Source: Nemertoderma westbladi
Taxonomy: Eukaryota; Animalia; Xenacoelomorpha
DNA length: 64,000 nucleotides
NCBI GenBank assembly: GCA_032718475.1
Contig: JAUCBJ010005321.1
Span: 50,686-114,685, forward strand
Direction: 5' to 3'
This document shows positions 5,344 to 64,000 of the stretch, piece by piece; the first letter of the stretch is position 1; every line of letters begins with the position of its first letter. A program made the translations under genes and the position numbers. Under the pieces are notes generated by a model. It did no database searches. It saw nothing but the letters and a program-made list of their open reading frames with translations, and was not told the DNA's origin.

Positions 5344-5410
5344 CAGGTTACCTTGTTTCACATTTATCGACCAGTCAAGGATGAAAGCCTGGGTCGGGCT
5401 TGGCTGCAGC
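5344..5410 (-). mobile_element. SINE-like central-domain fragment
   Basis: Minus strand reads GACCCAGGCTTTCATCCTTGACTGGTCGATAAATG, matching 41918-41965 (CACTCAGCCTTTCATCCAATGGGGTCGATAAATTG) and resembling a conserved metazoan SINE central domain. Confidence 0.55.
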
Positions 5411-41899: not shown

Positions 41900-42038
41900 T
41901 AGGTTCAGCCCCGCCAGGGTCCACTCAGCCTTTCATCCAATGGGGTCGATAAATTGAGTACCAGTTAAAATACTGTGAGCCAAACAAGGGATATTAGTAG
42001 CGCCCACGCCTACCCTCGGGTAGCAGATAGGAGTAGCG
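41900..42038 (+). mobile_element. SINE-like element whose 36-bp tandem tail is interrupted by LTR element A
   Basis: GTCCACTCAGCCTTTCATCC..GGGGTCGATAAATTGAGTACCAG followed by TAGCGCCCACGCCTACCCTCGGGTAGCAGATAGGAG. The tandem continues at 53756-53843. Confidence 0.6.
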
Positions 42039-43252: not shown

Positions 43253-43262
43253 CCGCTCCCAG
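43253..43262 (-). other. Polypurine tract of element A
   Basis: Minus strand GGGAGCGG immediately precedes TGTAAAAG of the 3' LTR. Confidence 0.75.
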
Positions 43263-45429
43263 AAAATGGGATTTTCAGTCTATAAAATATAAAAATCACA
43301 GTTTCTAAAACACAAAGATACTCTAAACAGTTAGTCTTTCTTACGCAGACGGCGTTTACGCAGTTTTTTGAGGCTAGCAAGAGTCTTTTTCTCTTTGGGG
43401 GGAGCCACTTTACTAGGAGGGCCATAACTCCTGGGTGAAGGGTGCAATATGATTGCATCAGAAGGTGTAGGATTGTGGTCGAGGTATCTGCCGTTTCGAT
43501 ATGCTTCTCCTCGAGCTGATTTTCCTCCGCTCGTAGCTGGATACGTTCATCCAAAAACTCTCGCAGAAAATAGGATCGTCCAAGTTCGATAACTTCTTAG
43601 AGATTCTGGATTTCCCAAACGAATTGAGATAAGGCCAATTCGTGTATCGATTGGACTCACTGTGATAACTTACGTTTATCTGAACAAGCGCAGGTTTCCC
43701 TTTTGATCTTTATAAAATAGCGTTTAACTCGTTTCGTACAACGCTCTCCTTCACCTTGATGAGGGGTTGTATCGCGTTAAGCGTGGACGACCATACGGTT
43801 GGATAGTGATATTAGGTGTCCGCGTCACAATCCGGCTAGGTAAGATGGGCGGCTAGCTAGAAATCACTGTCGGAGTGTTACCGATTAATTGTTAGGGTAG
43901 CACTAGATCTTTGAACAGTGAATACAGTCCGCGAGGATCCGCGACACCACCAAGATCGCAGGTCTGAGGTCCAACTAAGGAATGAGGAGGTTTGACCGAG
44001 TATTCCGGGACTCTGATCGTAGGTTTACTCCAGGATCGTTCGAGCCGAGTGAGCATAGGTGATACGTCAACAAGTTTCGGTTTACGTGGATGTTTACGTC
44101 TTTCCGTTTATTAGTTGGGTCTAGGGCATTTATCGTAATAATACCAAAGACGCACGTCTGGTAGGGTAAACGCGGGTGATATTTATTTGTTGTTACAATG
44201 CTTCTATCAAGAATTCCAAATATACGTTGGAGTTACCGCGTCCATTTGTTTCTTAAGTGTCTTTTCTTTCGAGTCGATTTCGAATATAATTTTCGCATTA
44301 GAATTTCCGTTTATGGTTCCGACTCCGCTGGGCAGGATATATAGTCGACATAGTCCGTATTGTGTAAATCGATAGGATGACCAGTAGTTAAGAAGCCCAT
44401 ATACATACCATTACGCCGCGTATATCGAGCAGCGAATTTTCTATAGTCCAACTCAGGCGAGCTGCTCTTGGGACATTGGCGGTTCGATATAACGCCCATC
44501 GTCCTCCGCAGCAGTTGGACTAACGTCGCCGCGTATTAAGCTATCAACGAACGCTTGTAAAGTAGAGTATATCGCTCCCCGATACCAAGAACATCTGCTA
44601 TCAACTCCATCATGTCTGCTATATATGAGTTTATCCACATTATAAGGAGTTTATATTCAGGCTAGCGAGCGTCGCTGCCTACTCCAATTAACCCCCGGAC
44701 AGTACGAGATCCTCAGCGCCGATGTGTCGTCGCCGCTGTACTTTCGCCAACGACGTAGCCGCACAACGACAACGACAACCGACACAAGTCACTCGACTGT
44801 CCGTCCCAAAGACTTAGATGTACTTCAGGTTTTCCTTGGAGAGTTAGGTTACTTTTACGATTGCGACTAGCTACTGTAAACACACCTTAGTAGTAACATT
44901 CGCCTATAAACTCACAAGTACCACACACACAACTGGTCACAAATTACACACACTCGGGTCACTTGTCCGTTAGTCAATGCCTTCCAGAATGTCACTGTAT
45001 TATTATGTATCCTTGGATACTATCAGTGCACTATTTATTCCCTATGCTATTCAATGGGACAAGCTTTCTATTGTTCTTTTAACTCAATTCTAATTCTAGC
45101 GTGGTTGTTGCTATGGTGACATTATGCAAAGCTAGCGGTAGAATTAGGGTGATTCCAATGCATACAGATCTGGGATGTTATTTAATAGTAATTCTTTAAT
45201 AGTCAATGTTCTGTTTTATACATGACTTTATGAATTTTATCGGCTATTGACTATGTTTGGGAGACTTTCACACACTCATACGCATGATAAGATAAATCTC
45301 CGCTCCCTTGATCTATTAATTAATGGAATTTTGGGAACTTTATAAATTGCGTAAAAATGGCAATTTATTAAATTCATTAAAGGCATGAATTTAAATTGAT
45401 TCCCTGAAATTTTATTATTTGATAATTAA

Positions 45430-45755
45430 ATGGACATATTTGGATTCCAGAACATGTCTGGGGACACAAGATCCTTAATTCTATGACAATTGTCTTTTTA
45501 AGAATATCGGTAAATACTACGATATCTTAATTGACTAGAATTATTGAAGGATCTGAATTTTACAGATTTTGATTTATTAGATTTTGCAAATATTAATTAA
45601 TTAATATTCGAGATGGGCACCGATTTATTCCAGAACTTGTCTGGGGACGTTAACCACTGATTCTAGAATTTGTCTTTCAAGTATATCGGTGGGTGCCGCG
45701 ATATCTTAATCGACTAGAATTACAGATGGTCAAAGGGTTTAACAGATTTATTTTG
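45430..45755. repeat. Diverged ~183-bp direct repeat (2 copies) in the 3' non-coding region of element A
   Basis: TTCCAGAAC(A/T)TGTCTGGGGAC...GATATCTTAAT(T/C)GACTAGAATTT at ~45445 and ~45628. Confidence 0.8.
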
Positions 45756-46271
45756 CGTTATACGCTACTGTTAAAGGGACATCACGCTACTATATGTATT
45801 ATTTAATATACGGTATGAGAGCAATATCGCACGAAGCAATGTCAGTGTGAAGAGGCAAGTCGTTTCCAAGGTCTACCCAGAGCTTGGTTTAGCCGAGACA
45901 CGAGGATCTGAACTTTGCATTCCTAATACTCTGCCTACCAATAATACTTAAATATAGTAGTGGCTTTATTGTACTTTAATAAGTACGGACATTTCATCTT
46001 ACTGTAGTTACGTATTTGTAATGTAATACGGACAGTAAGGAAGAAGGAAAAGAATTATTTCTTGCCGTCGCATTAAATATAATATATACGTAATTAAGTA
46101 ATAAACGCGAATATATATTGCACTAATCTACTAAATAATCGCTAAAATAACATTCTACTGAATAAAATTAAAGAAAACGATTATAATAGAATTACATAGT
46201 AATACATACATAAATATAAAAATAATAAAATAATACAAAATAATAGAGTCACACACCCACTCCATATGTTG

Positions 46272-49200
46272 TTACGTTATGGAGTCCCTAGATGTTTGAA
46301 GGATTAGGGAGGTGGTCGTGGGAAGAGAATCTTGTCTTCCACAGTTTCCGGAGAGTCCTCCATTCCCTTCCGATAAACACAAACGACCGACTGGGTGATT
46401 GAGTCGCTGCATCCTGAATACAATTCCAGGTTTCCTCTTCGTCCTGGAATAGTGACGATAGAAACATCGCTCAAAGTATATGACGGCGTCACAAAGCCGA
46501 TTCCAGGAGCTATAGTGGTCCGTCGCTCTCTGCAGGAGAGGTGAGAGTCCCTGCGAGACGTCTGATGTTCCAGAGCTCCAATCGCTCTCTCTGATCTTCA
46601 TGAAGGATCCACTCGCGGAGGGGAGGCCCAGATCCACGGCGTCGTCCCTGGCAACATGTAATACCGACAGATCTATCCCGGGTTCAAATAACTCCGATCC
46701 ACCCGTCCGGGTTTCAGGTTCGACTTTCTCCGCTCCCTTGGCTGGTCTAATCTCAGTCGGAGTAAGATGGGGAGGCCATTCATTCTCCTTACTCAGGAAG
46801 TCGGGTTCACCTAACCGGTCTATAGTATCTGTCAGTTCTTGAGGAGTTGCTCCTCTGGAAGCGATGTCCGTTGGATTAAACTTCTTGGGGCAATATCTCC
46901 ATTGATCTACATTGGAGCTAAGATTGTCATTATCTGAGGAGTGTGGTGTTCCCTCAGTTGGGTCGTCTCCCTCACTAGTATCGTCTTCCCATTCACTCAC
47001 CTGGCAGACACGATCTTGAAGCAGTCTTTCCCTGAGCGTTCTACGGGAAGGTCCAGTAAGGTACCAACCTACTCTAGTTCTTACCGCATAGGTCTGTAGT
47101 GGCTGCGGTTGAGCAGGTCGTTTCTCTAATGTCTCCAGCGCCTCATGCGCGTTTTGGCCGATGAGTATTTGCACTCCAGGATAATCAGTCTGGAATCGAG
47201 GTATGTTAAGATGTTGTATGCTCTCATCCTCGTCCCAATTATAAAGGTCTGCTTGAGTAGTAGCGAAGTTCTTTATAGCCACCATTTTCACTGACCTTAT
47301 GCTGTGTTCTCCTAGTTCGTCTTGTGGGGTGGACAACGCGCCTACATAATAATCAGCAGCTGTTATTGTAGATTTCCAAACTTGCATAATGCCAGACATG
47401 TTGAGCTTAGTTTGGAACTTGGGCTGTCCAGCAAATATATCTTCGGCTAGCTCTTTATCGATGAATGTTCCTGTGCTGCCGGAGTCCAGGAGGGCGTTCA
47501 CTACATAACTCCGTTTAGGTCCGTGCACCCTTACCTGCACCACAGGAAACTCTCGGATCCCTATATTGGAAGTTGGCGCTTTCCAAGATGGTTGTTGATC
47601 GGAAGTAGTTAAGGTAAGGTCGCCGTCTGTGTCTTTCTCATACACGAGTGCTCGATACACTGCGGTGGTGTTTATTAGGTAACAGGATTCGTTTTGGTCG
47701 GAGAACTCGTCCGTATAGAATCCTTCCATCTCAGATTGATCAGTGTCGTTCACATCACTGAATTGGACATGTGGTTCGGACTCACTTACCTGACTCGGGC
47801 TGTTTCGTTCGAATTCCGTGTGCAACAAGATATGATGTTTTGCGCCGCACTTTGCACACCTTGCGTCGGAGTTACAGGTTCGCCGTTGGTGTCCTCGTCT
47901 GAGGCAATTATAACACAACCGCTTATCCCACATGACTTCACGTCTATCCTCGAGTGATTTCCTCAGGAATTTATCACACGCATTTAAACGGTGGGGCCCG
48001 TCGCACAGCACACATTTCGGCTTGATGTTACTTACTTTAACCTGTGCTATGTGGTGCACACTTGTTCTTTCCTCGGGCTTTCTCACCTGAATTCCTTTAG
48101 GAGACGTAGGAGGGGTTTTTTGTATCGGTTCCCTTCTGTCATTGGGTCGAGACTTGGATTTACTTACCTGTTCTTTAGGCATTTTATTGACATAATAAGG
48201 TCTGTCAGTGTCTTTCCCGCTGTCCTCTCCTTGAGAGGTTTGGCTTTCACCGTCGTCGGTATAACATACTGGTGTTACCCTTCTCCTAGAAACGGGTTTC
48301 TCACTTACCTTGTTTTCCAATGTCTTCTCTCTGGACTGCCTTAGGAGCTGTAATTTCACTTCTCTATCTAAGAATGACATGAGATCAGTCATGGTAGGGT
48401 CTCGTCGTTGTTGTTCCATCATATATAACACCTTCTTATCCCAGCGTGTACCTACTCCACCCTTGGGCAAAGTAGATGCTAAGGCTCCTACAACCATAGA
48501 ATTCTGGTATTCATGAGACTTACCTAACCAATCTAGTTGTCTACAGATCTCCTGAATCTCATCGGAAAACTCTATAATCCCGCTGCTAAGAAACTTTCGG
48601 GGCGCCATTAATTTCGCATATAAATACCTAGCTATGTTAGTCCTATTACCATACCTGATGTTTAGTGTATCCCAAACTTGTCTTAATCCATCTGGATGTC
48701 CAATAAATTTTAACGCCATTGACTTGGGAGATCCTTCCAAGCACTCGATGAGGTATCTAAGTTTTTCTCCATTAGATAGTACAGAGTTCTGTATGTTATC
48801 TTTGTAATATTCATTAAAAGGTAACCATTTCATCTCATCTCCATTGAACTTGACGATCTCTCCAACCTTTACCGCTTGCCGGGCTTCGGTTCTAGCCATT
48901 TGACGCGTAAAACTTTCTTGGGCCATTGTGCTATTTAATATCGAGTTATCGGTATATAAATTTCTCGGATTATGATCAGTTCTATAGGGAATATCATTAT
49001 CAACAGGTCTATAATTACCCTTAATAGGGTTCACTATAGGAGTTTCTACTTCGCTAGCAGTATATATGCGTGTAGGCTCCACACCTTGCGCATGCAATAC
49101 TTCAGACCTAACAGGTTGACACATTGTTACAGAGGGTGGTGGTATACCCTTTTGTAAACTTACTAATTTATCGCGCTCTAGCGCGATATTTTGCTGCACT

Positions 49201-50402
49201 TCTTGCAACTCCAACTTGCTTTCCCTCACTGTTCCCTTTAAATGTTGGACAGTCCCTTCCAACTCTCGGACCTGTTGGGAGGAGCGTATCCGATTCTCCT
49301 TCATCTCTCCGAGGAGAATATCCATCCCCCGCCGTCTCTCGTCTACCCAATCAACCGCCGAAACGGGATCCGCCAACGTCGTAGCGGGCAGACAAGGGAC
49401 AACGGGCGACAAATTCGGAATATTTCGCTCGGGGTCCAGGACCTGAACTGTCTCTCGGGCAGTCCTACGGGGCACAGGTAGCTTAGTGCTATGTAGAGGG
49501 AATTTATAGGTAGCTTCAGGGAGCACAGATGTATCTATTACCGTAGGGGTGATTTCAAGAACAGGCCTACTTATTTCAGGCTCATCCACTATAGTAGGGA
49601 GTCTTTCTATTTTAATTATTTGGTCTGTGGGCTCTGTACTACCTAAGTTGGTGTTATTTAGTTGCCTTCTAACAGCTGGAGGCAAATCAGGCAATTTCTG
49701 ACGGTGGAATGTTCTTTTACGTCTGCTTAGACGAGATCTATTTCCTTTGCCTTCAGTATCGGTGGTATCGCCTTCCTCCGATGATGTATATCCCTGTCTT
49801 TTGGGAGTAGATCGACTCATCATCTGCATATTACTAGCTGTTAACTGTTTATTGAAGTTGTCTTGCCTCTCTTGAAGATTTTCCAACTCTAGTTGGGTTG
49901 CCTCTTCAGATGCTCTCCGTTCTGCTTCCGCCACCGCTGCCGCTTTTACCTCTGCCGCTGCCGCTTTTGCCTCTGCCTTTGCTTCTGCTGCTGCTTTTGT
50001 TGCCTTTGCCTCTGCTTCTGCTGCTGCCGCTTTTGCCTCTGCCGCTGCTTCTGCCAAGGTCGCTTTTCTTTCCGCCTCTGCCACTGCTGCTATCTTTCTG
50101 TCTTCTATACGTTTTTTCTTTACTTGTTCTTCTTGTTCTCTAGCGATGCGGAGTTGTTCATCGAATTTAGCTTGGTTCGCCGCTAACCTATCCACATCAA
50201 TCGCATCTAACACGAGTTTGGCTCCTTCGCTATTAGGGCTAAGTCCCTCTAGCCTTCTCCTCAACTCTTCATCTCCCAAAAAACGCTGATAGTCTGACAG
50301 ATAGATGTCAATGGCATCCCTCTTATGCGGTTTCTCTGCTGTCACTTCACTCTCGGTTGTATCTAGTAGACTGTCTGACAGGTTCTGCTTTGCGTCAGAC
50401 AT
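46272..50402 (-). CDS. gag: Bel/Pao Gag-aspartic protease polyprotein (1376 aa), pol internally deleted
   Basis: Ala/Glu/Lys coiled coil; DUF1759-like KFNGDEMKW...SNGEKLRYLIECLEG; three Cys/His motifs (CVLCDGPHRLNAC, CYNCLRRGHQRRTC, CAKCGAKHHILLH); protease ALLDSGS...ILIG. These run directly into WRYCPKKFNPTDIASRG (Pao RNase H/peptidase A17 end) and YSSWNRL. No YxDD RT motif and no DDE integrase core. Confidence 0.93.
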   Translation of the reverse strand: MSDAKQNLSDSLLDTTESEVTAEKPHKRDAIDIYLSDYQRFLGDEELRRRLEGLSPNSEGAKLVLDAIDVDRLAANQAKFDEQLRIAREQEEQVKKKRIEDRKIAAVAEAERKATLAEAAAEAKAAAAEAEAKATKAAAEAKAEAKAAAAEVKAAAVAEAERRASEEATQLELENLQERQDNFNKQLTASNMQMMSRSTPKRQGYTSSEEGDTTDTEGKGNRSRLSRRKRTFHRQKLPDLPPAVRRQLNNTNLGSTEPTDQIIKIERLPTIVDEPEISRPVLEITPTVIDTSVLPEATYKFPLHSTKLPVPRRTARETVQVLDPERNIPNLSPVVPCLPATTLADPVSAVDWVDERRRGMDILLGEMKENRIRSSQQVRELEGTVQHLKGTVRESKLELQEVQQNIALERDKLVSLQKGIPPPSVTMCQPVRSEVLHAQGVEPTRIYTASEVETPIVNPIKGNYRPVDNDIPYRTDHNPRNLYTDNSILNSTMAQESFTRQMARTEARQAVKVGEIVKFNGDEMKWLPFNEYYKDNIQNSVLSNGEKLRYLIECLEGSPKSMALKFIGHPDGLRQVWDTLNIRYGNRTNIARYLYAKLMAPRKFLSSGIIEFSDEIQEICRQLDWLGKSHEYQNSMVVGALASTLPKGGVGTRWDKKVLYMMEQQRRDPTMTDLMSFLDREVKLQLLRQSREKTLENKVSEKPVSRRRVTPVCYTDDGESQTSQGEDSGKDTDRPYYVNKMPKEQVSKSKSRPNDRREPIQKTPPTSPKGIQVRKPEERTSVHHIAQVKVSNIKPKCVLCDGPHRLNACDKFLRKSLEDRREVMWDKRLCYNCLRRGHQRRTCNSDARCAKCGAKHHILLHTEFERNSPSQVSESEPHVQFSDVNDTDQSEMEGFYTDEFSDQNESCYLINTTAVYRALVYEKDTDGDLTLTTSDQQPSWKAPTSNIGIREFPVVQVRVHGPKRSYVVNALLDSGSTGTFIDKELAEDIFAGQPKFQTKLNMSGIMQVWKSTITAADYYVGALSTPQDELGEHSIRSVKMVAIKNFATTQADLYNWDEDESIQHLNIPRFQTDYPGVQILIGQNAHEALETLEKRPAQPQPLQTYAVRTRVGWYLTGPSRRTLRERLLQDRVCQVSEWEDDTSEGDDPTEGTPHSSDNDNLSSNVDQWRYCPKKFNPTDIASRGATPQELTDTIDRLGEPDFLSKENEWPPHLTPTEIRPAKGAEKVEPETRTGGSELFEPGIDLSVLHVARDDAVDLGLPSASGSFMKIRESDWSSGTSDVSQGLSPLLQRATDHYSSWNRLCDAVIYFERCFYRHYSRTKRKPGIVFRMQRLNHPVGRLCLSEGNGGLSGNCGRQDSLPTTTSLILQTSRDSIT

Positions 50403-51769
50403 GCTTATGTGTACAGTTGAATGTCTACTGCCGTATTACAGTCTGAGCAAGTCTAGTAACTCAGTATTAACTGCTAGCCTAGTAATTAATCACCGGTACT
50501 GCTACTTAGTGTAGCGTGATATATATAATATATTAGAATACCGGTATGCTTATAGTATATATAACTATTATTACAGACTAGGTTTATCACCGAATACCGG
50601 TATAATTTTAGCACAAATATATATAAATATATAATAGGCCTATCTGGAATACCGGTATACAAATACAGCTTACAGTCTGTAGGATATATAATTCTGAAAT
50701 AGAATTAATTACACGTACCGGTATAATTTCAGCCTAGATTTATAGGAATAAAGATAATAGGCCTATCGTAAATACCGGTATATCAATTATTTTAAAATAA
50801 TTGTATTTCTGTTACTTTAGGGTTACTTTGTTACTTTACTTACTTTATTACCGTTATTTAAGCAGTAATCCAACTTATATTGAGACCTAATGGTTGTATT
50901 GTAGGCCTACGATTTATAAATCGTTAGATTTGATTTATAATATATATATACCCGTTTTAATGGGTTTTGTCAATGTTTGAAATAAATGTTATTATTTCTG
51001 GGGTAATCACTACACAAAGCGGTGCGCTTTCAGTGAAGTGTTACGTACAGGACACTAAAACAAATAATACTAATTTACCTAAGTTACTTAATACTACAAA
51101 TTACGTACAATTCGGGTGACATTACAATCTCTAAATAAATGCAAAAATTTACAAAAACGCAAAATACGAATTTTTAGGGTAATTTTACAAGAAGTCTACA
51201 AACCAGCCTAACAAAGGGTTAGAAATCTGATTATTACAGCGGACAGGGTACTACGGTATTTGAAATAATAAGTAGTAGTAAATACACTGCGTTGTCTAGA
51301 TAGGAAAATGCCACCGCCTGACGACCTATAGCCGTATCGCTATAGGTTCTACGTTATGTATCACGGAGTGTTCCTACCTAGAAGTTAATAGAGCTAATCG
51401 AATGTGCCTATCAACCACTTTACAACACAAATATAATGCCTACAATAATTACTTCGGAAAGCACCGTACACTAAACCCTAAATTAGGTACGAGTACTTGT
51501 ATAACAAATAATCAGTAGTTAAATATACTTGAACAGCTAAAAGAACCACGGCATCTGCTGGAGTGACCGATGCACAAAATCACCAGTCTTTACCTACGCC
51601 AAGCAGCCCTTGTAGTACCGGGGTTAATTTAACTATAGCGGTATGTATAACAAACACAATTACTGTAGGAACAAACTTGGGGACTTGAATGTTGCGAATA
51701 ATCGCATAAACTCTGAATAATAAATATTACGCTACGCGTACAAACTACTCAAACAAAATACAGACCGAA

Positions 51770-52300
51770 CACTGACAGACTACTATCAAGCCTAAACAAA
51801 CTACGGTATATGCAGACTCCGAAATGATTAGGGAGTATGCGCTCTATCCCAGTAGTGCGACTTATTCTTTAGTTGGGGGTTTACCTTACAGTGTTCACTG
51901 CCCCTACTGCCTAATCGTACTTAATCGGACAGATGATCTACACATGCGGCAATCCGTTCAGACCTAATAACAGCCAGACAACTATCCAGCCTACAAATTA
52001 TTTAAATAAAATTATACGCTACCCGTACAGACTTACACAAACAAAGTACAGACTAAACGATGGCAGACTACTCTCAAGCCTAAATAAACTACAGGACATG
52101 CAGACTCCGAAATGATTAGGGAGTATGCGCTCTAACCCAGTAGTGCGACTTATTCTTTAGTTGGGGGTTTACCTTACAGTGTTCACTGCCCCTACTTCCT
52201 AACCGTACTTAATCGGACAAATGCTCTACACACACTGCAATTCGTTCGGACTTAACAGCAATCAGACAACAGCTCAGCCTACAAATTGTCTGTACAATCT
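51770..52300 (-). repeat. ~289-bp tandem duplication in the 5' leader of element A
   Basis: ATGCAGACTCCGAAATGATTAGGGAGTATGCGCTC... at ~51810 and ~52098, also present in element B. Confidence 0.9.
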
Positions 52301-52602
52301 GATCAGGTTTACACGCCTTCTGTTCAATACTGGCCTACAAACAAATAAAACTTGACAGAAATAAGTAAAATCTCAATAAAAACCAGGCGTCCCCGATTAA
52401 TTATTAAGACCTACTGGTATATAACAATCAAATCGAATAATACTAGTGTACTTATACTGCTGTAGGTACCGGTCCGGGTGGTTAGGTAGTCAGGCCTACT
52501 GGTACCGGTTCTGGCAGTTGGGCCTACTGACCTACAGATGTACCGGTTGACCGGTACTTTCGACTTTATTGCTTACTGCAATAAAGAAGCTATATCCTTT
52601 AA

Positions 52603-53755
52603 TGTTCGCGCTTTCAGACCTTTGGCAGTTTAACCCGCCAAATTAGAATGTCTTCTAGATAATAAATCTGCTTTTTAGTCTATGACAAGTATTTGATTCA
52701 CTACACTAGTCGAAACCAATCCGTGCGCGACCATTCACCCGCTGGAAATTCCCGGGAGATTGGGTTCGACGGTTTAATTTGTATTGCTATGTAAGCCTAA
52801 TGTATTATTCGACTGACAGTATTATATAATCTCTGACAATATTATTCACCTTCGGTAATATTAACAGTTCCTTTAGGACGTGGCGCTTTATCTACATAAA
52901 CAGAGTTATGACTTAAACTACTCGCAACGATATGGCTTAATTATAATCCACATATATGGCGCATTCTTTAGGAATTGCTTCTTTAACAGACTCACTCATA
53001 CACTATGCTGCACAATACTGCACACTAATCTGCCAATCTTCACTGATTTTAGTCACATATAAAAGGAACACAGGCTGACTCATGTAGGGTCTATCAAATA
53101 ACATTAGATTCACTTCAAACCACTTTAACATAAGTCACAATCGTTAGAATATTGGGTTGCGGGGTTATTTATCGTTATTCCAAATATAATTATTCATCAA
53201 CCATATTATGAAGAACTGACAGCAAATAGCAGTATAAAACAACAAGTCAGTACCGGTATGTACTGCACATAGGCATGAGATATTCAAGTAGTCAGTTGCA
53301 GTTAAAGGATATATGCCCTTTATAATTAAACCTACTAGTGTAAGACTAAAAACTAAAACACGGAGGTGCCAAAGCCGGTTCTTAGGCTCTGGACAAAAAC
53401 AATAACACTGAACTACTGAGTTTCTGTATATACCTCCAACACAGAGATAACAAACGCTCTGATTGGTCAACCTGAACAACGAGAGAACAGAGAAACAAAG
53501 AAACGTCGACGTGGCAATATCAGCTGCTAGCCGTCGTCATGGTAGCGACACTGTTTTCAAGAGTATCGTGCTTTTACGTCACGGAATTACGGATTATGTC
53601 CTCTAAAGTACAAATACAGAAGAAATAGCTCTTATGTCCGCTAAAACACCAGTACAGCAAGGACACGGCCTTTTTATGCCTGGTAAACCAACTACAGAGT
53701 ACTTTACGGGAAAAATAAGGAAAAATAACCGGACAATTCAGTAAAAGCTTTTACA
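52603..53755 (-). repeat. 5' LTR of element A (1153 bp)
   Basis: Sense strand TGTAAAAGCTTTT...AAAGCGCGAACA, a direct repeat of 42039-43252 with a diverged outer ~400 bp. Confidence 0.95.
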
Positions 53756-53843
53756 TAGCGCCCACCCCTACTTTCGGGTTGCAGATAGGAGTAGCGCCCA
53801 CCCCTACCTTCGGGTAGCAGATAGGAGTAGCGCCCACCCCTCC
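53756..53843 (+). repeat. 36-bp tandem repeat, continuation of the target site of element A
   Basis: TAGCGCCCACCCCTACCTTCGGGTAGCAGATAGGAG, ~2.4 copies. Removing element A restores the register with 41998-42038. Confidence 0.9.
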
Positions 53844-54419
53844 CTAGACCAGCGACTTTACGAATCTGCCAAGATCTATACGGATCATGCTATGTGCTTG
53901 ATTCATGTGCACTGATCATAATACATTTTAAATCTGCTACGATCATAGAATGATCATACAAAATCTTTTAAGAATTTTACATATACAAAATATTGAAAAA
54001 ATATTTATTTATGGAATGTATGGTTGCAATTTGTTAAATATCAAAACCATTTTTACATTAAACATTATAATTATTGTCTTGGAAAGTAACAACGTCATGG
54101 CTATTATATATCCTACGATCAGACTACGATCAGGATAAGATCAGGCCAGATAATGAGGCTGCCCAAATTTTAAAACACCAGAGGCAGAGGCCAATGATAA
54201 TTATTTTTTTGCCGTATTTAACCGACCAGAGTACTCTCTTTTACAGCGTTTTGCATAAGATTAACATATCATACGAAGATATTTTCAGATCTTATCATGA
54301 TCATATCACAAGGCGATACCTAATACAGGCCATGACATGGGAGGCATATGCAAAATTAGCGGAGGCCGACCTACTTACTGTACTGTCAGACTGTAGTATG
54401 GTATTACAATTACAGTAAG

Positions 54420-55706
54420 GCCACCTAAACAACGTTACTTAGATGACCTTGCAGCCTTGAGTACGGTAGTAACAATACTACATACAGTAAACCAATAAAC
54501 AAGTATCTGACTGTCTGACTGTGTATTCCCAAACGTTCCTGCCCTCTTTATTCCCACACCTACATCTGCTCGTTCTACTGTCTGACTGTCAGAACGCGTT
54601 TAGAAGTTCGCTTTCCTCCATCGGACGAATTGGAAGAGTTTGAGAAGAAAGATTATGTTGCTTTGGATGATCGTTTTTCTGAAATTAGAGGCAATTGTAC
54701 ATGCAGTTAAGCTCACGGACAGAAGTAAATCCGACGACGTAACCACGATATCTAACTCCAAAGATATTGCTTATCTCTACCCCGGTCGCTTTGGATTTGT
54801 TAACCGGCAGATTCAATTGTTAAATAGTTCAAAAGCTGATAGGATAAAGAAGGTAGGACCCTAGGTTAACCTTTTTGGAGGATTTAGCTAAGGTAGCCAT
54901 GTTTAAGAAGACGTCAAACAATAAACTACGTTGTAAGAATTTAACAACTGATACAGCTTTGGGATTACAAAATTACTGCTTAGGAGTTGTTGAGCTCACC
55001 AGATTTATCTTAAATACTTGTGGTATTGCTCAACACTCTTATGTTTTGCTTGGCAAATTCCAAAGCGATTTAATCGAAGAACTCGTTGGTTATTTTCGAC
55101 AAGCAGCTGGTGGTAACTATTATTTGTCCTGTAAACAATTATATTAGAGACTGCAAGAATAGATCAGGCAAAACTTAGTTTTTTAATTGATGGATATCAT
55201 GGATTTACTAAATCAGATGGGCAACATGTTTGCAATTTATGTACTACACGTCTTAGCGACATGGAACTGCTACTGATGGATGATATCCCTGACAGTGTTG
55301 AAGCATTTAGCCAAGATGTGGAACAGGTTGTTGTCTGCATTGCTGGATATGTTGCCAAGAAAGTTCCACAATTTGCTCTAGAACCCGATGTTGTTAGTAA
55401 CTACAATACGGACTTTATTAGTTTCCTGAACAGACAGACAGAAGAAAGTTACAATATCCTTCAGATCACCCAATCAATTTGATTGTGTATTGTTACATTT
55501 TGATTCAAAGCGTGGACTTATCAAAAATGTGTCGCGTGAGACTAAGGAAAGCCATTGAATGTCTTTCGGAATCATATGGCTTTGGAGCCATCCCAACGAA
55601 AGCGAGCAACATAATTGTAAATATATTTTTAAACAATTATTGTGAACAGCAAAATACAACGTTGGATGCCGAAAGCACAAAGAAAAAGATGAAATTTATG
55701 TTCTGA
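54420..55706 (+). pseudogene. Decayed P-element/THAP9-like transposase
   Basis: YVLLGKFQSDLIEELVGYFRQAAGGNYYLSCKQ (ORF 54875-55147) matches the P-element transposase catalytic-Glu region. CIAGYVAKK follows, as in P/THAP9 C-termini, with a possible THAP remnant (VFPNVP) near 54525. Several stops and frameshifts; the 5' boundary is approximate. Confidence 0.78.
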
Positions 55707-55924
55707 AACCTACCCAACTCAAAACTTAAATGTATTATTTTTGCATTATTAATTTAAATATTATATGTCAGTTTCCACAATTAGCTTAATTTAATATATG
55801 AAAATATTTTATCCGTGCGTATGGTCACCAGCAGTTTTCGTGTCTTGTCTAGGATCCGAAAACCGACACTTTATAATTTTGAAACATATTCTGTTACGGT
55901 ATATGGCGCTGTACCTACATTATG

Positions 55925-56028
55925 TAATATATTAGTCCGTTATACTGTACATACATTAGTCCATTATACAGTATAATATATTAGTCCATTATATAGTATC
56001 ATATATTAGTCCGTGATGCAGTATAATT
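55925..56028. repeat. ~25-bp minisatellite, 4 copies
   Basis: ATTAGTCC(A/G)T at ~55931, 55955, 55980 and 56005. Confidence 0.8.
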
Positions 56029-56288
56029 ATTTAGATAAGGCATAACGCGCAATGATATTTAGATAAGGAAGTTGAAACGCCCATATATTTTGAACTCATC
56101 CATTTTGTATAGTATGTAGCCCTACCTATGTAATTTTGTAATAGGATATAAGTAGATAGTTCCAGGGTAGCAAGTCCTTGTTGGACCCTGGATATGGGCT
56201 TGCCGTTATTAGCCTTGATGAGGCTAGCTACTGGTTTTAATTTCTCTATAATTGCGCTAAATTTATTATTAATGATATTATTAGTACC

Positions 56289-57433
56289 TGTAAAAGCTTT
56301 TGCGTGATTAACCGGTTATTTTCCCTTAAAGTACTCTGTAGTTGGTTTACCAGGCATAAAAAGGCCGTGTCCTTACTGTACTGGTGTTTTAGAGGACATA
56401 AAAGTCATTTCTTCTGTATTTGTACTTTAGAGGACATAATCCGCAATCTCGTGACGCGATAAGCTAGATACTCTTGAAAACAGTGTCGCTACCATGACGA
56501 CGGCTAACAGCTGATATTGCACGTCGACATTTCTTTGTTTCTTTGTTCTCTCGTTGTTCAGTTGACCAATCAGAGCGTTTTTTGACTCTGTGTTGGAGTT
56601 GGGTACAGAAACTCAGTAGTTCAGTGTTATGTTTTTGCCCAGAGCCTAAGAACACCGGCTTTTGGCACCTCCGTATATCAGCATTCTTTAGCTTTACATT
56701 AGTAGGCTTAATTATAGAACGTATATCTGTTATCTACTCACTTATTCACTCACTATCCATAAATTACTAATATTACTGCTTTTACTGTCGGTTGTTCATT
56801 ATATTTGTTGATGAAATATTATATCGGAATACTGATCAATAGTCCGACATCCCAATCTTCTTGATATACTAAAGGTTAGAGAGACCGGTTACAGATAAAC
56901 GATTGCGACATATGTTAAGTGGTTTGAAGTGAATCTAATGCTATTTCATATGCCCGACATAAATTGTATGTTGCTCTCTTTATACGTGACCAAATTTAGT
57001 GAAGGTCGGCAGATTAGTGTGCAGTATTGTGCAGCATTGTGTATGAGTGTAACTGATAACAAAGCATCTCCTAAAGAATGCGCCATATACGTAAATCTAT
57101 AGCCTTTTCGTTGTGTCTAGTTTAAGTCATAACTCTGTTTACATATTTAGAGCGCCACGTCCTAAAGGAACTGTTAATATTTCCCGAAAGTGAATAATAT
57201 TTGTCAGAGATTATATATTACGATCAGTCGAATAATACGGTAGGCTTACACCATCAATCATTAAGCTCCGAACTCAGTCTCCCGGGTATATCCAACGGGT
57301 GAATGATTGCGCATAGACTGGCTTCGGCTAATGTAGTGTATCAAATACTCGTCATAAGCTAAAGAATATATATCATCCAAAAGACATCCTAATTTGGCAG
57401 GTTAAACTGTCAAAGGTCTTAAAAGCGCAAACA
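56289..57433 (+). repeat. 5' LTR of element B (1145 bp)
   Basis: TGTAAAAGCTTTT...AAAAGCGCAAACA, an inverted homologue of 52603-53755. Confidence 0.93.
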
Positions 57434-57714
57434 ATAACAGATATTGCTTCTGGATTGCGGTGTAAGCAATCTAGTCGAAAGTACCGGTTGACCGGAAACC
57501 TGTAGGCCTGACTGCCTGATCATCCGAACCGGTACTTACAGTACAGGTACAGCAGTATTATTCGATTTTGATAATTATATACCGGTAGGTCTTAATAATT
57601 AATCGGGGACGCCTGGTTTTTATTGGGATTTTACTTAGGCCTATTTCTGTCAGTTTTATTTATTTGTAAGCCAGTATTGAGCAGAAGGCGTGTAAGCCTG
57701 CTCAGATTGTACAG

Positions 57715-58250
57715 ATAATTTGTAGGCTTGACTGTTGGCTAACTGTTGATTAGGTCTGAACGGATTGCAGTGCATGTAGAGTGTATGTCCGATAAAGAAC
57801 GGTTAGGAAGTAGGGGCAGCCATAGCTGTAAGGTAAACCCCCATCTAAAGAATAAGTTGTACTACTGGGTTAGAACGCATACTACTTAACCATTTCGGAG
57901 TCTGCATGTCCTGTGGTTTATTTAGGCTTGATAGTAGTCTGCCATCGTTTGGTCTGTACTTTGTTTGTGTAGTCTGTACGGGTAGCGTATAATTTTATTT
58001 AGATAATTTATAGGCTGGATAGTTGTCTGGCTGTTGTTGGGTTTGAGGAAATTTCGGTGTGTGTAGAGCATCTGTCCGATAAAGAACGGTTAGGAAGTAG
58101 GGGCAGCCATAGCTGTAAGGTAAATCCCCATCTAAAGAATAAGTCGTACTACTGGGTTAGAACGCATACTACTTAATCATTTCGGAGTCTGCATATACCG
58201 TAGTTTGTTTAGGCTTGATAGTAGTCTGTCAGTATTTGGTCTGCATTTTG
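57715..58250 (+). repeat. ~287-bp tandem duplication in the 5' leader of element B
   Basis: TCCGATAAAGAACGGTTAGGAAGTAGGGGCAGCCATAGCTG... at 57788 and 58075. Confidence 0.9.
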
Positions 58251-59619
58251 TTTGAATGGTTTGTACGCGTAGCGTAATATTTATTATTCAGAGTTTATGC
58301 TATTATTCGCAACATTCATATCCCCAAGTTTATTCCTACAGTAATTGTGTTTGTTATACATACCGTTATAGTTAAACTAACCCCGGTACTACATCAGGGC
58401 TGCTCGGCGTAGGTAAAGACTGGTGATTTTGTGCACCGGTCACTCCAGCAGATGCCGTGGTTCTTTTAGCTGTTCAAGTATTTTTAACTACTAATTATTT
58501 GTTATACAAGTACTTGTACCTAATTTAGGGTTTAGTGTACAGTACTTTCCGAAGGTGATTAGTGTGTAGGCAGTATATTTGTGTTGTAAAGTGGTTAATA
58601 GGCACGTTGGTTCTGGTAGACCGCGGTAATTAATCTCTAGGTAGGAACACTCCGTGATACATAACGTAGTACCTATAGCGATACGGTTATAGGTCGTCAG
58701 GCGGTGGTATTTTCCTATCTGGACAACGCAGTATATTTACTACTACTTATTATTTTCAAATACCGTAGTAACCTGTCCGTTGTAATAACCAGATATTCTA
58801 ACCCTTTGTTAGGCTGGTTAGTAGACTTCTTGTAAAATTACCCTAAAAATTTGTATTTGTGTATTTGTAATTAAATTTTTGTGTTTATTTAGAGATTGTA
58901 ATCTCAACCCGAATTGTACGTAATTTGTAGTATTAAGTAACTTAGGTAAATTAGAATTATTTGTTTTAGTGTCTAACAAGTAGCACTCCACTGAGAGCGC
59001 ACAGCTTATGTGTAGTGACTCCCCCAGAAATAATAACATTTATTTCAAACATTGACAAAACCCATTAAACGGGTATATATATATTATAAATCAACTCAAA
59101 CGATTTATAAATAGTAGGCCTGCCATATAACAATTAGGTCTTAATATCAGTTGGACTACTGCTTAAATAACGGCAATAAAGTAAGTTAAAGTAACCAAGT
59201 AACCCTTAAAATTCAGAAATTCAATTATTTAAAATAATTGATATACCGGTATTTACAATAGGCTTATTATCTTTATTTTCATAAACTTAGGCTGAAGTCA
59301 TACCGGTATTCTGTAATTAATTCTAGTTAATAATTATACTTATATATACTATAAGTGTAAACTGCATACCGGTATCCACGATAGGCCTATTATATATTTA
59401 TATATTTGTGCTAAAATTATATACCGGTATTTTGTGAAAAACCTAGTCTGTAATAATACTTATATATACCATAAGCATACCGGTATTCTAATATTATATA
59501 TATCACGCTACACTGAGTAGCAGTATCGGTAATTAATTACTAGGCTAGCAGTTAATACTGAATTACTAGACTTGCTTGGACTGTAATATAGCAGTAGGCA
59601 TTCAACTGTGCAAACAAAC

Positions 59620-62600
59620 ATGTCTGATACTAAGCAGAACATGTCAGACAGTTTATTAGATGTAACTATCTGCGACTCAGATAAGGGTGTAGAACCGTCT
59701 ACACCTAAGTTCAGTTCACCTCCCACTGTGAGGAAGGTCATCCCTCCAGTAGTAATAACAGAACCGAGGCTGGTCCAACATCGTAGGTCTATCATAGGCA
59801 CTCGAGCTCAGGTCAAGCGGGACCAAGAAGCAGCGGAACAGCAACAACCCGCGAGCCAAGAACTTATTTCTCAGCGGTCCGACAGCTCCAGTAGTGAGGA
59901 TACTGTAGAGCTGACACCCGAGCGCGGAGCAAGGATGACGGATGCGGTTTATTCGGATCCCCTTCTCATCCTTCCTGCAGCCGTACTCACTAGGTTATTG
60001 ATTGCGGTGGAAGAACACCAGATCGATTGGGCGAGAAGTAAGCGATCAACTAAAGATAGTTATGAGGGATACACAAGGGAAGAACTGAAGTCTATGGTCG
60101 AGTCGCAATGGAACTTCCCCGGACCCGGACTCCCGTTTGATTTATCAGAAGCTACCTGGGAAGACATACACCGGATGGGAGTAGCCAAGGAGACCACCGA
60201 TCCAGCTGTGTGGAAGAGGTCCGCAGCCGGATACGCACAGGGATTCTTCAGCTCTATGGAGCGAGTAGAAAAACAACTGTTTCAACAACCCCAAGGACCT
60301 CAAGAGCAGGGACAACTGCTTTATCAAGTTAGAGAAAGAATTCTACGAATCAGGCTAATCTTATCAGCCTTTGAGGAGGCTTCTAAAAGAAGACAAGACA
60401 CGTCGTTGCAAGTTGCTGTAAAGACTTGGTTTCAAAAGGTGAGTCTCCAGGTTCAAGGAACGGCTCAGTGGAAAGCCCAACTAGATGAGCGCTCAACCCA
60501 TGGAGAATCAACAGACGCTACATTTTCCCAAGTGGAGAGTGAAGCGACAGCAGAGAAGCCGCATAAGAGGGATGCTATTGATATCTATCTGTCGGACTAT
60601 CAACGTTTTGTAGGTGATGAAGAGCTGAGGAGAAGGCTAGAGGGACTTAGCCCTAATAGTGAAGGAACCCAGCGTGTGTTGGACGCCATCGATGTGGATA
60701 GGAGAGCTGCGAACCAAGCTAAATTTGATGAAAACATCCGCCTCACTAAGGTTCAAGAAGAACAAGTAAAGAAAAAACGTATAGAAGACAGAAAGATAGC
60801 AGCAGCGGCAGCAGCAGTGGCAGAAGCAGAAAGAAAGGCAGCAGTGGCAGAGGCCGAAAGAAAAGCGGCCTTGGCAGCTACAGTGGCAGAGGCAGAAAGA
60901 AAGGCGGCCTTGGCAGCTACAGTGGCAGAGGCAGAAAGAAAAGCGGCCTTGGCAGCTACAGTGGAAGAAGCAGAAAGAAAAGCGGCTATGGCAGCTGCAG
61001 TGGCAGAAGCAGAACGAAAGGCGTCTGAGGAGACTGCCCAACTAGAGTTGGAAAATCTTCAAGAGAGGCAAGACAACTTTAATAAACAGTTAACAGCAAG
61101 TAATATGCAGATGATGAATCGATCTACTCCCAAGAGGCAAGGTTATACATCATCTGAGGAAGGCGATACCACAGATCATGAAGGCGGAGGAAATCGATCT
61201 CGCCTAAGCAGACGTAAAAGAATGTCCCACCGTCAGAAATTGCCTGATTTGCCCCCAGCTGTTCGAAGGCAACTAAATAACACAAACTTAGGTAGTACAG
61301 AACCCACAGACCAAATAATTAAAATAGAAAGACTCCCTACTATAGTAGATGAGCCTGAAATAATTAGGCCTGTTCTTGAAATCACCCCTTCGGTGATAGA
61401 GACACCTGTACTCCCAGAACCTACCTTTAAATTCCCTTTACACAGCACCAAATTATCTGTGCCTAGAGGAACAGCCCTTGAAACAGTGTCGGTCCTGGAC
61501 TCCGAGCGAAATATAAAGGATATATCGCCCGTAGTCCCTCGTCTGCCCGCTACGACGTTGGCGGATCCCGCTTCGGCGGTTGATTGGGTGGACGAGAGAC
61601 GGCGGGGGATGGACATTCTCCTCGGAAAGATGGAGGAGAATCGAGTGCGCTCCTCCCAACAGGTCCGAGAGTTAGAAGGGACTGTTCAACAGTTAAAGGG
61701 AACCGTAAAGGAAAGTAGGTTAGAGTTGCAAGAAGTGCAGCAAAATATCGCGCTAGAACGTGATAAATTAGTGAATTTACAAAAGGGTATACCACCACCC
61801 CCTGTAACAATGTGTCAACCTGTTAGGTCTGAAGTATCTCATGCGCAAGGTGTGGAGCCTACACGCATCTATACTGCTAGCGAAGTAGAAACTCCTATAG
61901 TGAACCCTATTAAGAGTAATTATAGACCTGTTGATAATGATATTCCCTATAGACCGGATCATAATCCGAGAAATTTATATACCGATAACTCGATATTAAA
62001 TAACACGATGGCCCAAGAAAGTTTTACGCGTCAAATGGCTAGAACCGAAGCCCGGCAAGCGGTAAAGGTGGGAGAGATCGTCAAGTTCAATGGAGATGAG
62101 ATGAAATGGTTACCTTTTAATGAATATTACAAAGATAACATACAGAACTCTGTACTATCTAATGGAGAGAAACTTAGGTTCCTCATCGAGTGCTTGGAAG
62201 GATCTCCCAAGTTAATGGCGTTAAAGTTTATTGGACATCCAGACGGATTAAGACAAGTTTGGGATACACTAAACATCAGGTATGGTAATAGGAATAACAT
62301 AGCTGGGTATTTGTATGCAAAGTTAGTAGCGCCCCGAAAGTTTATTAGCAGCGGGATTATAGAGTTTTCCGATGAGATTCAGGAGATCTGCAGACAATTA
62401 GATTGGCTAGGTAAGTCTCATGAGTATCAGAGTGCTATGGTTATTAGAGCAGTGGCTTCTACTTTACCGAAGGGTGGAGTAGGTACACGCTGGGATAAGA
62501 AAGTGTTATATATGATGGAACAACAACGACGAGACCCTACCATGGCTGATCTCATGTCATTCCTAGATGGAGAAGTGAAATTACAGCTCCTGAAACTGTC

Positions 62601-64000
62601 CAGAGAGAAGACACCGGAAAACAAGGTAAGTGAAAAACCCGTCTCTAGGAGAAAGGTAACACCAGTGTGTTATACAGATGACGGCGAAAGCCAGACTTCT
62701 CAAGGAGAAGATAGCGGGAAAGACACTGACAGATCTTATTACGTAAATAAAATGCCTAAAGATCAGGTAAGTAAATTCAAGTCTCGAACCAATGACAGGA
62801 GAGAGCAGGTAAGAAAAACTCCTCCTACGTCTCCCAAGAGAATTCAGGTGAGAAAGCCCGAAGAAAAAACAAGTGTACACAATGTTACTCAGAGTAAGGT
62901 GAGTAACATCAAACCGAAATGTGCGCTATGTGATGGGACCCATCGCTTAAATATGTGTGATGAATTTCTAAAGAAATCATTAACTGAGAGACGTGAAGTC
63001 ATGTGGGATAAGCGGTTGTGTTATAATTGCCTCAGACAAGGACACCAACGGCGAACCTGTTACTCTGACACAAGATGTGCCAAGTGCGGTGCGAAACATC
63101 ATGTCTTGTTGCACACTGAATTCGAGCGAAATAGTCCGAGTCAGGTAAGTGATTCCGAATTACATGTCCAATTCAGTGATGTGAACGACACTGATCAATC
63201 TGAGATGGAAGGATTCTATACGGACGAGTTCTCCGACGAAAACGAATCCTGTTACACGATAAATACCACAGTGTATCGAGCACTCACGTATGAAAGAGAT
63301 ACGGACAGCGACCTTACCCTAACTACTTCTGATCAACAACCATTTTGGAAAGCGCCAACTTCCAATGTAGGGATTAGAGAATTTCCTGTGGTACAGGTAA
63401 GGGTCCACGGACCAAAAAGGAGTTATGTAGTGAACGCCCTCCTTGACTCCGGTAGTACAGGAACATTCATCGACAAAGAGCTAGCCGAAGACATATTCGC
63501 TGGACAACCCAAGTTCCGAACTAAGCTAAACATGTCAGGAATTATGCAAGTTTGGAAATCCACAGTAACAGCGGATTATTATGTAGGTGCGTTGTCCACC
63601 CCCCAGGACGAACTAGGAGAACATAGCATAAGGTCAGTGAAAATGGTGGCTATAAAGAACTTCGCTACTACTCAAGCAGACCTTTATAATTGGGACGAGG
63701 ATGAGAGCATCCAACATCTTAAGATACCTCGATTCCAGACTGATTATCCTGGAGTGCAAATACTCATCGGCCAAAACGCGCATGAGGCGCTCGAGACATT
63801 GGAGAAACGGCCTGCTCAACCGCAGCCACTACAAACCTATGCGGTAAGAACTAGAGTAGGTTGGTACTTTACTGGCCCTTCCCGTAGAACTCTCATGGAA
63901 AGATTACCGAAAGACCAGGTATATCAAGTGCGAGAATGGGAAGTTGAGAACAGTGAGTTCGACGATCCAACTGAGGGAACTCCATACTCCTCAGACAACG
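59620..64000 (+). CDS. gag: Bel/Pao Gag-protease polyprotein of element B, 3'-partial (absent from the ORF track, apparently because it has no stop in the window)
   Basis: ATG at 59620 (MSDTKQNMSDSLLD). The same frame gives EATAEKPHKRD at 60541, Cys/His motifs at ~62920-63115, ALLDSGS at ~63436 and DDPTEGTPYSSDN at the window end. Confidence 0.92.
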   Translation, partial: MSDTKQNMSDSLLDVTICDSDKGVEPSTPKFSSPPTVRKVIPPVVITEPRLVQHRRSIIGTRAQVKRDQEAAEQQQPASQELISQRSDSSSSEDTVELTPERGARMTDAVYSDPLLILPAAVLTRLLIAVEEHQIDWARSKRSTKDSYEGYTREELKSMVESQWNFPGPGLPFDLSEATWEDIHRMGVAKETTDPAVWKRSAAGYAQGFFSSMERVEKQLFQQPQGPQEQGQLLYQVRERILRIRLILSAFEEASKRRQDTSLQVAVKTWFQKVSLQVQGTAQWKAQLDERSTHGESTDATFSQVESEATAEKPHKRDAIDIYLSDYQRFVGDEELRRRLEGLSPNSEGTQRVLDAIDVDRRAANQAKFDENIRLTKVQEEQVKKKRIEDRKIAAAAAAVAEAERKAAVAEAERKAALAATVAEAERKAALAATVAEAERKAALAATVEEAERKAAMAAAVAEAERKASEETAQLELENLQERQDNFNKQLTASNMQMMNRSTPKRQGYTSSEEGDTTDHEGGGNRSRLSRRKRMSHRQKLPDLPPAVRRQLNNTNLGSTEPTDQIIKIERLPTIVDEPEIIRPVLEITPSVIETPVLPEPTFKFPLHSTKLSVPRGTALETVSVLDSERNIKDISPVVPRLPATTLADPASAVDWVDERRRGMDILLGKMEENRVRSSQQVRELEGTVQQLKGTVKESRLELQEVQQNIALERDKLVNLQKGIPPPPVTMCQPVRSEVSHAQGVEPTRIYTASEVETPIVNPIKSNYRPVDNDIPYRPDHNPRNLYTDNSILNNTMAQESFTRQMARTEARQAVKVGEIVKFNGDEMKWLPFNEYYKDNIQNSVLSNGEKLRFLIECLEGSPKLMALKFIGHPDGLRQVWDTLNIRYGNRNNIAGYLYAKLVAPRKFISSGIIEFSDEIQEICRQLDWLGKSHEYQSAMVIRAVASTLPKGGVGTRWDKKVLYMMEQQRRDPTMADLMSFLDGEVKLQLLKLSREKTPENKVSEKPVSRRKVTPVCYTDDGESQTSQGEDSGKDTDRSYYVNKMPKDQVSKFKSRTNDRREQVRKTPPTSPKRIQVRKPEEKTSVHNVTQSKVSNIKPKCALCDGTHRLNMCDEFLKKSLTERREVMWDKRLCYNCLRQGHQRRTCYSDTRCAKCGAKHHVLLHTEFERNSPSQVSDSELHVQFSDVNDTDQSEMEGFYTDEFSDENESCYTINTTVYRALTYERDTDSDLTLTTSDQQPFWKAPTSNVGIREFPVVQVRVHGPKRSYVVNALLDSGSTGTFIDKELAEDIFAGQPKFRTKLNMSGIMQVWKSTVTADYYVGALSTPQDELGEHSIRSVKMVAIKNFATTQADLYNWDEDESIQHLKIPRFQTDYPGVQILIGQNAHEALETLEKRPAQPQPLQTYAVRTRVGWYFTGPSRRTLMERLPKDQVYQVREWEVENSEFDDPTEGTPYSSDN

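Follow-up and report, generated by a model that had tools for sequence, protein, structure and literature searches.

What primes reverse transcription in a Bel/Pao long terminal repeat (LTR) retrotransposon whose primer-binding site (PBS) does not look complementary to a tRNA? This question is raised by a 64,000-nt stretch of the Nemertoderma westbladi contig JAUCBJ010005321.1 (hereafter the window), in which one LTR family is represented three times, as A, B, and C. Viruses of the Belpaoviridae are described as having a PBS of 18 nt that pairs with a host tRNA (tRNA-Arg or tRNA-Gly), and their replication is poorly understood (PMC8742986). In a purely computational study, we found that the PBS position of this family is complementary to a motif inside its own LTR, and the best reading of the sequences is probably a self-priming mechanism like that of the fission yeast element Tf1, in which a cleaved 5' RNA fragment of the element's own transcript would serve as the primer.

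Element A is complete and lies on the minus strand (42039-53755), with a 5' LTR of 1153 nt that begins with TG and ends with CA (52603-53755, minus strand) and a 3' LTR of 1214 nt (42039-43252, minus strand). The LTR ends were set by comparing these two LTRs and by the 5-bp target-site duplication CGCTA that flanks A within a short tandem repeat (53756-53760 and 42034-42038, minus strand). Element B starts at 56289 with a 5' LTR of 1145 nt (56289-57433, plus strand) and leaves the window before its end. The first-pass annotation of this DNA had located a 12-nt motif in the A 5' LTR (53302-53313, minus strand; homologous 11-mer at 53302-53312) and an 11-nt motif in the B 5' LTR (56723-56733, plus strand), and had proposed that the PBS positions of A (52591-52602, minus strand) and B (57434-57444, plus strand) are their complements. 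All four strings were found at these coordinates, and each 11- or 12-mer occurs in the window only where that annotation had placed it. The complementarity directly after the LTR was exact, spanning 12 nt for A and 11 nt for B, at a distance of ~710 nt from the motif. In both elements the PBS position begins 0 nt after the terminal CA, and the pairing breaks at the LTR edge. The compensatory changes were borne out as well, with all three differences between A and B matched at the pairing partner (eight unchanged motif:PBS pairs, three two-sided changes, none broken). Crossed pairings between A and B were only 5–6 nt long and 6–10 kcal/mol weaker.

A TGG-type PBS is absent, as had been claimed: there is no TGG in the first 30 nt after the LTR of A, and the TGG at +18 in B is not common to A. 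The latter was rejected as a candidate PBS for this reason, and a TGG 37 nt within the LTR was rejected because it lies inside the LTR. When the A LTR was dinucleotide-shuffled, a 12-nt complement anchored at the PBS position arose in 3 of 5000 shuffles and, in a separate draw, one of 11 nt in 2 of 5000; the corresponding figure for 11 nt in the B LTR was 8 of 5000. Other internal positions with an 11-nt complement numbered 5 of 9319 in A, one of them PBS position 2, and 2 of 6536 in B. Complements of 12 and 11 nt with a gap of 0 fall within the definition of a Tf1-type site (at least 10 nt complementary to the element's own 5' LTR, with a gap of 0–5 nt), and the motif is contiguous in all four LTRs of the window, with no spliced match. 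A self-priming cycle would copy the primer into the PBS via the plus strand, and the covariation may therefore be partly mechanical; such mechanical covariation would still presuppose that the motif is the primer.

The PBS is also polymorphic in the host. Contigs of four public sequencing runs were aligned to the LTR/PBS junction of A, and statements on variants refer to those listed. The copy number of the family was very high, with 10015 contigs of run X1 aligned to 1.5 kb of it. The A-type PBS was in the majority across runs of several studies, while a variant at PBS position 5 made up 26% of the depth in X1 (37 contigs) and 28% in X3 (25 contigs), and a B-like PBS haplotype with one further difference was found in a single contig from either run. 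No TGG-type variant was among those listed at the junction (19 of 46 loose-end rows), and no variant of the motif or PBS was among the 40 listed of 254 in the first read alignment. A PBS copied from a tRNA would not be expected to vary so, and the polymorphism favours self-priming.

The motif has a second, co-varying partner inside the LTR, which is new and had been missed by the first-pass annotation. This mask site was found by folding and is located 325–371 nt downstream of the motif (A, 52981-52987, minus strand; B, 57055-57061, plus strand). In A it forms a helix, termed H3, with the final 6 nt of the motif and the C that follows. The sequence of the mask site includes the first six bases of the PBS and varies together with them: four of the seven H3 pairs are the same in A and B, three are compensated on both sides, and none is broken. 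The surroundings of the mask site differ between A and B at 9 of 71 positions, and by our own arithmetic the chance of the three specified changes was ~1e-4 to 1e-3, for a site that was found post hoc. The A-type motif goes with an A-type mask site in the A 3' LTR (motif, 42773-42784; mask site, 42417-42423; minus strand) and in LTR C (motif, 403-414; mask site, 36-42). Because the mask site does not arise by copying of the primer, its covariation would point to selection.

Two more helices extend this fold. In A, their 5' strands (53309-53332, minus strand) include the TATA-like bases, with H2 (8 bp) using 53309-53316 and H1 (13 bp) using 53320-53332, and their 3' strands lie at 52934-52957 (minus strand). 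In B, the 3' strands of H2 and H1 (57085-57104, plus strand) pair with 56705-56726. Between A and B, six of the eight H2 pairs are the same, one has changed on one side and one on both; among the eight H1 pairs compared, one has changed on both sides and one on one side. None of these pairs is broken. Of the 11 motif bases, 10 are covered by H1–H3 together, which reach up to 20 nt upstream and include the TTATA. Directly upstream of the mask site, a ~40-nt block (57008-57049 in B, with homologues in A and C) is nearly invariant in the four LTRs and has no Rfam match.

Two hairpins flank the PBS, and both preserve every pair between A and B. The first lies close to the LTR 3' end (A, 52621-52642, minus strand, 8 bp; B, 57393-57414, plus strand) and shows two one-sided changes, and the second lies directly past the PBS (A, 52565-52585, minus strand, 7 bp; B, 57452-57472, plus strand) and shows two two-sided changes. 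The conserved hairpin at the LTR end resembles the U5 stem-loop of Tf1, which Lin and Levin are said to have reported in 1998 to be required in that element. An upstream extension of the motif:PBS helix by ~8 bp was considered and dropped, since on the PBS side its bases are taken up by a separate conserved hairpin, while those upstream pair in H1/H2.

To place the family among its relatives, we retrieved 78 Bel/Pao loci from metagenome contigs by alignment and kept by hand 37 that were long and extended upstream of the match. In a first scan, 12 of the 37 had a match of at least 11 nt to the predicted GT-AG junction of their own LTR. After locus L005 had been viewed, the acceptor filter was loosened by one pyrimidine and the candidate interval was narrowed. 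In the final scan, the presumed primer site (CA/TA-adjacent and upstream of gag) paired with the locus's own predicted junction in 14 of 37 loci (L005, L007, L008, L010, L014, L018, L019, L041, L048, L054, L060, L064, L077, and L027), whereas the cross-locus control, run with identical settings, gave 11 of 1332 pairs. Such a junction would be present in RNA alone. The donor was GTRAG and the primer used 4–7 nt of exon 2 in the 13 correctly indexed loci. The longest junction matches were at L018:59-73 (15 nt) and L014:2298-2310 (13 nt). Contiguous self-matches were found in 8 of 37 loci versus 163 of 1332 cross pairs, a scan that is uninformative without known LTR ends. A second LTR copy fixed the LTR end in five loci; among these, a TGG site is present in L024 and L061, a spliced match in L010 and L018, and a contiguous 11-nt match in L006. 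Contiguous 11-nt self-complements at the presumed PBS lie at L006:912-926 and L016:775-785, and the LTR end of L006, as set by its second LTR, appears to be TA, followed by a 3-nt spacer.

The predicted introns, if real, would require the 3' LTR copy to stay unspliced in order to be inherited, so that the primer would come from the 5' end. A TATA box precedes the splice donor by 142 nt in L018 and by 171 nt in L010, and the primer of these two loci would therefore be a long 5' fragment and not the first 11 nt. Like the window family, the splice-junction loci and L006 have a PBS position that is complementary to their own LTR over 11–15 nt. However, a GT-AG intron must be removed in the splice-junction loci, whereas the motif of the window family is contiguous and its PBS match does not depend on removal of an LTR intron; the spacer past the LTR is ~3 nt in L006 and L018, where the end is known, and 0 in the window family. 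A mask-like partner did not stand out in the relatives, where the locus's own motif took first rank in 4 of 14 loci and had a mean rank of 5.7 (the L027 row being mis-indexed). A gag-protease tree (37 rows, L048 and L077 excluded, quick method only) put the window family on a very long branch (length 4.0) in an unplaced position. With no intron at its motif and no placement in the tree, the window family draws support from these relatives by analogy only.

In Tf1, the RNA pairs with the PBS through its first 11 bases, and RNase H cleaves between bases 11 and 12, according to the available portions of PMC7175516. By the same logic, the 5' motif copy of the window family would bind the PBS. Cleavage of the RNA at the motif's 3' end, probably through the RNase H of the element, would yield a 5' fragment, and its extension into minus-strand DNA would begin at the first LTR base. 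As the PBS would be re-copied from the primer in each cycle, motif and PBS would stay matched. The mask fold (H1–H3), which is mutually exclusive with PBS pairing, is predicted to form over the motif once the RNA includes at least 10–20 upstream bases, which is the situation of the 3' LTR copy, and would keep that copy from use or cutting. Consistent with this scheme, PBS pairing in the foldings was 0.92–0.95 if the RNA started at the motif and ran 45–60 nt past the LTR, and mask pairing was 0.76–0.98 with 97 upstream nt or in a 3' LTR context; the 3' LTR motif copy folded into the mask at 0.77 (A 3' LTR) and 0.98 (B without PBS). The tRNA-independent self-priming proposed in the first-pass annotation is thus supported by the lack of TGG, the polymorphic PBS, the termination of the duplex at the LTR edge, and the similar logic in other Bel/Pao loci, but its placement of the U3/R border by LTR divergence is not.

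Several results weigh against this self-priming model. With an RNA starting at the motif, PBS pairing dropped to 0.13 (A) and 0.00 (B) when 150 nt past the LTR were included, and to 0.00 (A) and 0.17 (B) when 30 nt were included. Element A retained PBS pairing of 0.69–0.94 with 20–30 upstream nt in contexts of 45–150 nt, and a clean switch occurred in B only, at 10–20 upstream nt. The mask energy beat that of shuffled sequences in A (4/300) and did not in B (71/300), and the upstream strand of B pairs equally with the partner from A (-24.6) and its own (-24.5). Phase is known for just two pairs of motif and PBS. Motifs matching the position-5 PBS variant and the B-like haplotype of the runs are absent from the four window LTRs, and the position-5 variant, if uncompensated, would mean a central mismatch in about a quarter of the PBS depth. 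The spliced-primer loci offer an analogy, as the tree does not group the window family with them.

The position of the transcript start was considered separately. The first-pass annotation had taken the point where the two LTRs of A begin to diverge as a likely U3/R border just outside the motif. Downstream of the motif, the 5' and 3' LTRs of A are identical (67/67 and 631/631 aligned positions), apart from a 35-nt segment that is absent in the 5' LTR. Upstream of the motif, 39 of 41 columns are still identical, and we rejected the divergence point as a marker of the transcript start. Divergence sets in further upstream (258/394 identical, ~65%), where the U3 of the A 5' LTR is like that of B (346/382 identical), the remainder being like the A 3' LTR. 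This recombinant type was also present in another run. At least three U3 types occur among the four LTRs, and the two LTRs of A belong to a single insertion with a matching target duplication. The TATA-like TTATA noted in the first-pass annotation is indeed present upstream of the motif, but it has a co-varying partner ~370 nt downstream and reads at least equally well as part of an RNA helix.

We give a start at or just before the motif an about even chance; it is favoured by a T/A step ahead of the 11-mer in all four LTRs, by a length equal to that in Tf1, and by the switching fold of B. A start further upstream is plausible but somewhat less likely, and is favoured by a CCAAT box 154–171 nt upstream in the A 5', A 3', and B 5' LTRs and by the TATA boxes of the relatives L018 and L010. 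A start downstream of the motif is unlikely, and is favoured by a TATAAA 11 nt ahead of the 12-nt motif, which is found in A and not kept in B or C. Splice-like sequences were also observed in these LTRs. A donor-like AG/GTAAGAG occurs at 42603 (A 3' LTR, minus strand) and 223 (LTR C, minus strand), with GTTAGAG in B at 56875; this site lies ~150–190 nt downstream of the motif, in the 35-nt segment absent from the A 5' LTR. An acceptor-like TTTAG is conserved ~33 nt upstream of the motif (53345-53351, minus strand, with homologues in the A 3' LTR, the B 5' LTR, and LTR C) and adjoins the point of U3-type swapping between copies.

The PBS could also pair with the motif copy of the 3' LTR, either in the same RNA (circularisation) or in a second packaged RNA, with priming from a cut or trimmed 3' end and a transcript start downstream of the motif. 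We consider this improbable. The motif is present in both LTRs, and the TATAAA of A would place the start just past the motif; however, this TATAAA is not conserved among the copies and has a co-varying RNA partner, and the mask fold takes up the 3' LTR copy at the values given above. A cut there would, in addition, part U3 from the R needed for strand transfer, and in the intron-bearing relatives the 3' copy would stay unspliced and could not be the primer in cis.

Alternatively, the motif:PBS and motif:mask pairings could be a structural switch for packaging, dimerisation, or translation, while a host RNA such as a tRNA half or another small RNA primes. Two mutually exclusive co-varying folds would suit such a switch, and half-tRNA primers are known in Ty1/copia lineages (PMC6317226, available portions). 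However, the PBS haplotypes number at least four (those of A and B plus two from the runs) and would demand several host primers, the duplex stops exactly where the 3' end of a primer must sit, and no TGG site is found near the LTR end, which makes this explanation quite improbable. Chance complementarity in AT-rich DNA, or a decayed tRNA site in dead copies, is hardly credible: A lacks a reverse transcriptase (RT), and contiguous 11-nt matches are common when there are many candidate sites (the 163 of 1332 cross pairs), but here the site was fixed beforehand by the LTR end, shuffles rarely reproduced the match (3/5000 and 8/5000), changes were compensated at two separate partners, and the A-type PBS is dominant across runs of several studies.

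Judging from its proteins, the window family is Bel/Pao. The open reading frame (ORF) of A encodes 1387 aa (46272-50435, minus strand) and contains a DUF1759 gag, three Cys/His knuckles, a protease with DSG, and the end of RNase H in frame; that of B (59587-63999, plus strand) contains the DUF1759 gag, knuckles, and protease and continues past the window. DUF1759 exceeded the cut-off in both elements, and the gag-protease region of the family has the three knuckles and an LLDSG protease motif, in the Bel/Pao order of gag and knuckles followed by an aspartic protease. LTRs, the target-site duplication, and a polypurine tract adjoining the 3' LTR of A (GGGAGCGG, 43253-43260, minus strand) likewise agree with Bel/Pao. 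The A ORF skips from profile position 718 to 1270, with the RNase H end matched at an independent E-value (iE) of 5e-10, so that RT and most of RNase H are missing, and integrase was not detected in A (iE 0.58). Lacking these, A would be non-autonomous, and having lost RT it would be moved in trans. Element B exits the window ahead of RT. The protein relatives are distant: one search gave 6 matches, and the best 150 of 11763 relatives were mostly 25–38% identical, with 49% in a single short stretch. All 12 close relatives scanned had DUF1759 matches, and 9 of the 12 also had Peptidase_A17. No relative was found in viral contigs searched with the B protein and with the alignment, and a family-specific DNA pattern had 0 matches in the metagenome contigs.

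Compared with the Belpaoviridae (Semotivirus), the family has the same DUF1759 gag, three knuckles, protease, and RNase H end motif, as well as TG...CA LTRs of ~1.2 kb, a purine tract, and a 5-bp duplication. In contrast, its proteins are very divergent, and it departs in the PBS from the description of the International Committee on Taxonomy of Viruses (ICTV), which gives a tRNA-complementary PBS, as judged by the absence of TGG at the PBS position. Self-priming systems include Tf2 and, from Schizosaccharomyces japonicus, Tj1 (PMC4600332, PMC5341516), and self-priming has been predicted for the Tcn1 and TAR lineages (PMC6317226); these papers were available in part. Like Tf1 and Tf2 of Schizosaccharomyces pombe, Tj1, Tf1/sushi, and Tcn1 as described there, the window family has no tRNA site and a PBS complementary to an 11-nt stretch of its own LTR. 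Unlike this Ty3/gypsy group, it has no chromovirus-type polyprotein, its domains and relatives being Bel/Pao, its motif-to-PBS distance is ~710 nt, and its motif has a second co-varying, masking partner, none being described in the portions of the Tf1 literature consulted. The TAR lineage of plant Ty1/copia elements (Houba, Osr-1) similarly has an LTR complement of at least 10 bp located 0–5 bp past the 5' LTR (PMC6317226, in the same portions), in another superfamily and another host kingdom, and in both cases the prediction comes from sequence.

The first-pass annotation had considered self-priming in Bel/Pao undescribed, and we found no description of it in the literature searched; subscription journals, Repbase reports, and supplements were mostly outside this search, and a prior description is possible. 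PMC3118150 and PMC6238403 contain no occurrence of primer, PBS, or tRNA, and PMC554778 mentions primers only as PCR primers. The accessible sections of PMC13524379, PMC3286476, PMC3601003, PMC6934838, and PMC8220671 describe no self-priming Bel/Pao element. If the self-priming model is true, self-primers would occur in all three LTR superfamilies, Bel/Pao replication would escape tRNA-fragment control, and PBS-based annotation tools would miss or misread such elements. The three-way co-varying mask is what the window family adds to the self-priming signature, and the mask model predicts that RNA 3' ends lie at 53302 and 56733 and that the LTR copies at the 5' and 3' ends adopt opposite folds. 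More tentatively, much of Bel/Pao may be tRNA-independent and primed by its own RNA, with the 5' copy selected by an LTR intron in the relatives or by a co-evolving mask helix that uses U3 bases in the window family; primer, PBS, and mask would then form a three-way switch gating reverse transcription.

Other features of the window were recorded. LTR C (1-855, minus strand), whose 3' part is cut off by the window start, represents a third U3 type. The 5' leaders of A and B, of 2.2 kb, each contain a duplicated unit of ~290 bp (51722-52287 and 57713-58292). Between A and B, broken reading frames at ~54850-55480 (plus strand) had no Pfam match at E 0.1; we take them to resemble the C-terminal part of P-element/THAP9 transposases. 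Rfam gave no match at E up to 1 across 40200-64000, hence no known ribozyme, and ARAGORN found no tRNA over the whole window. A broken fragment of a non-LTR reverse transcriptase lies at ~3140-4060 (minus strand; RVT_1 5e-6, below the cut-off), followed by a 63-bp tandem repeat of ~13 copies at 4503-5346. The LTR family shares the window with a 33-kb array of a 45-bp satellite (7126-40110, ~733 copies, ~98% identity), in which a single frame is open across 7319 codons as a consequence of the repeat.

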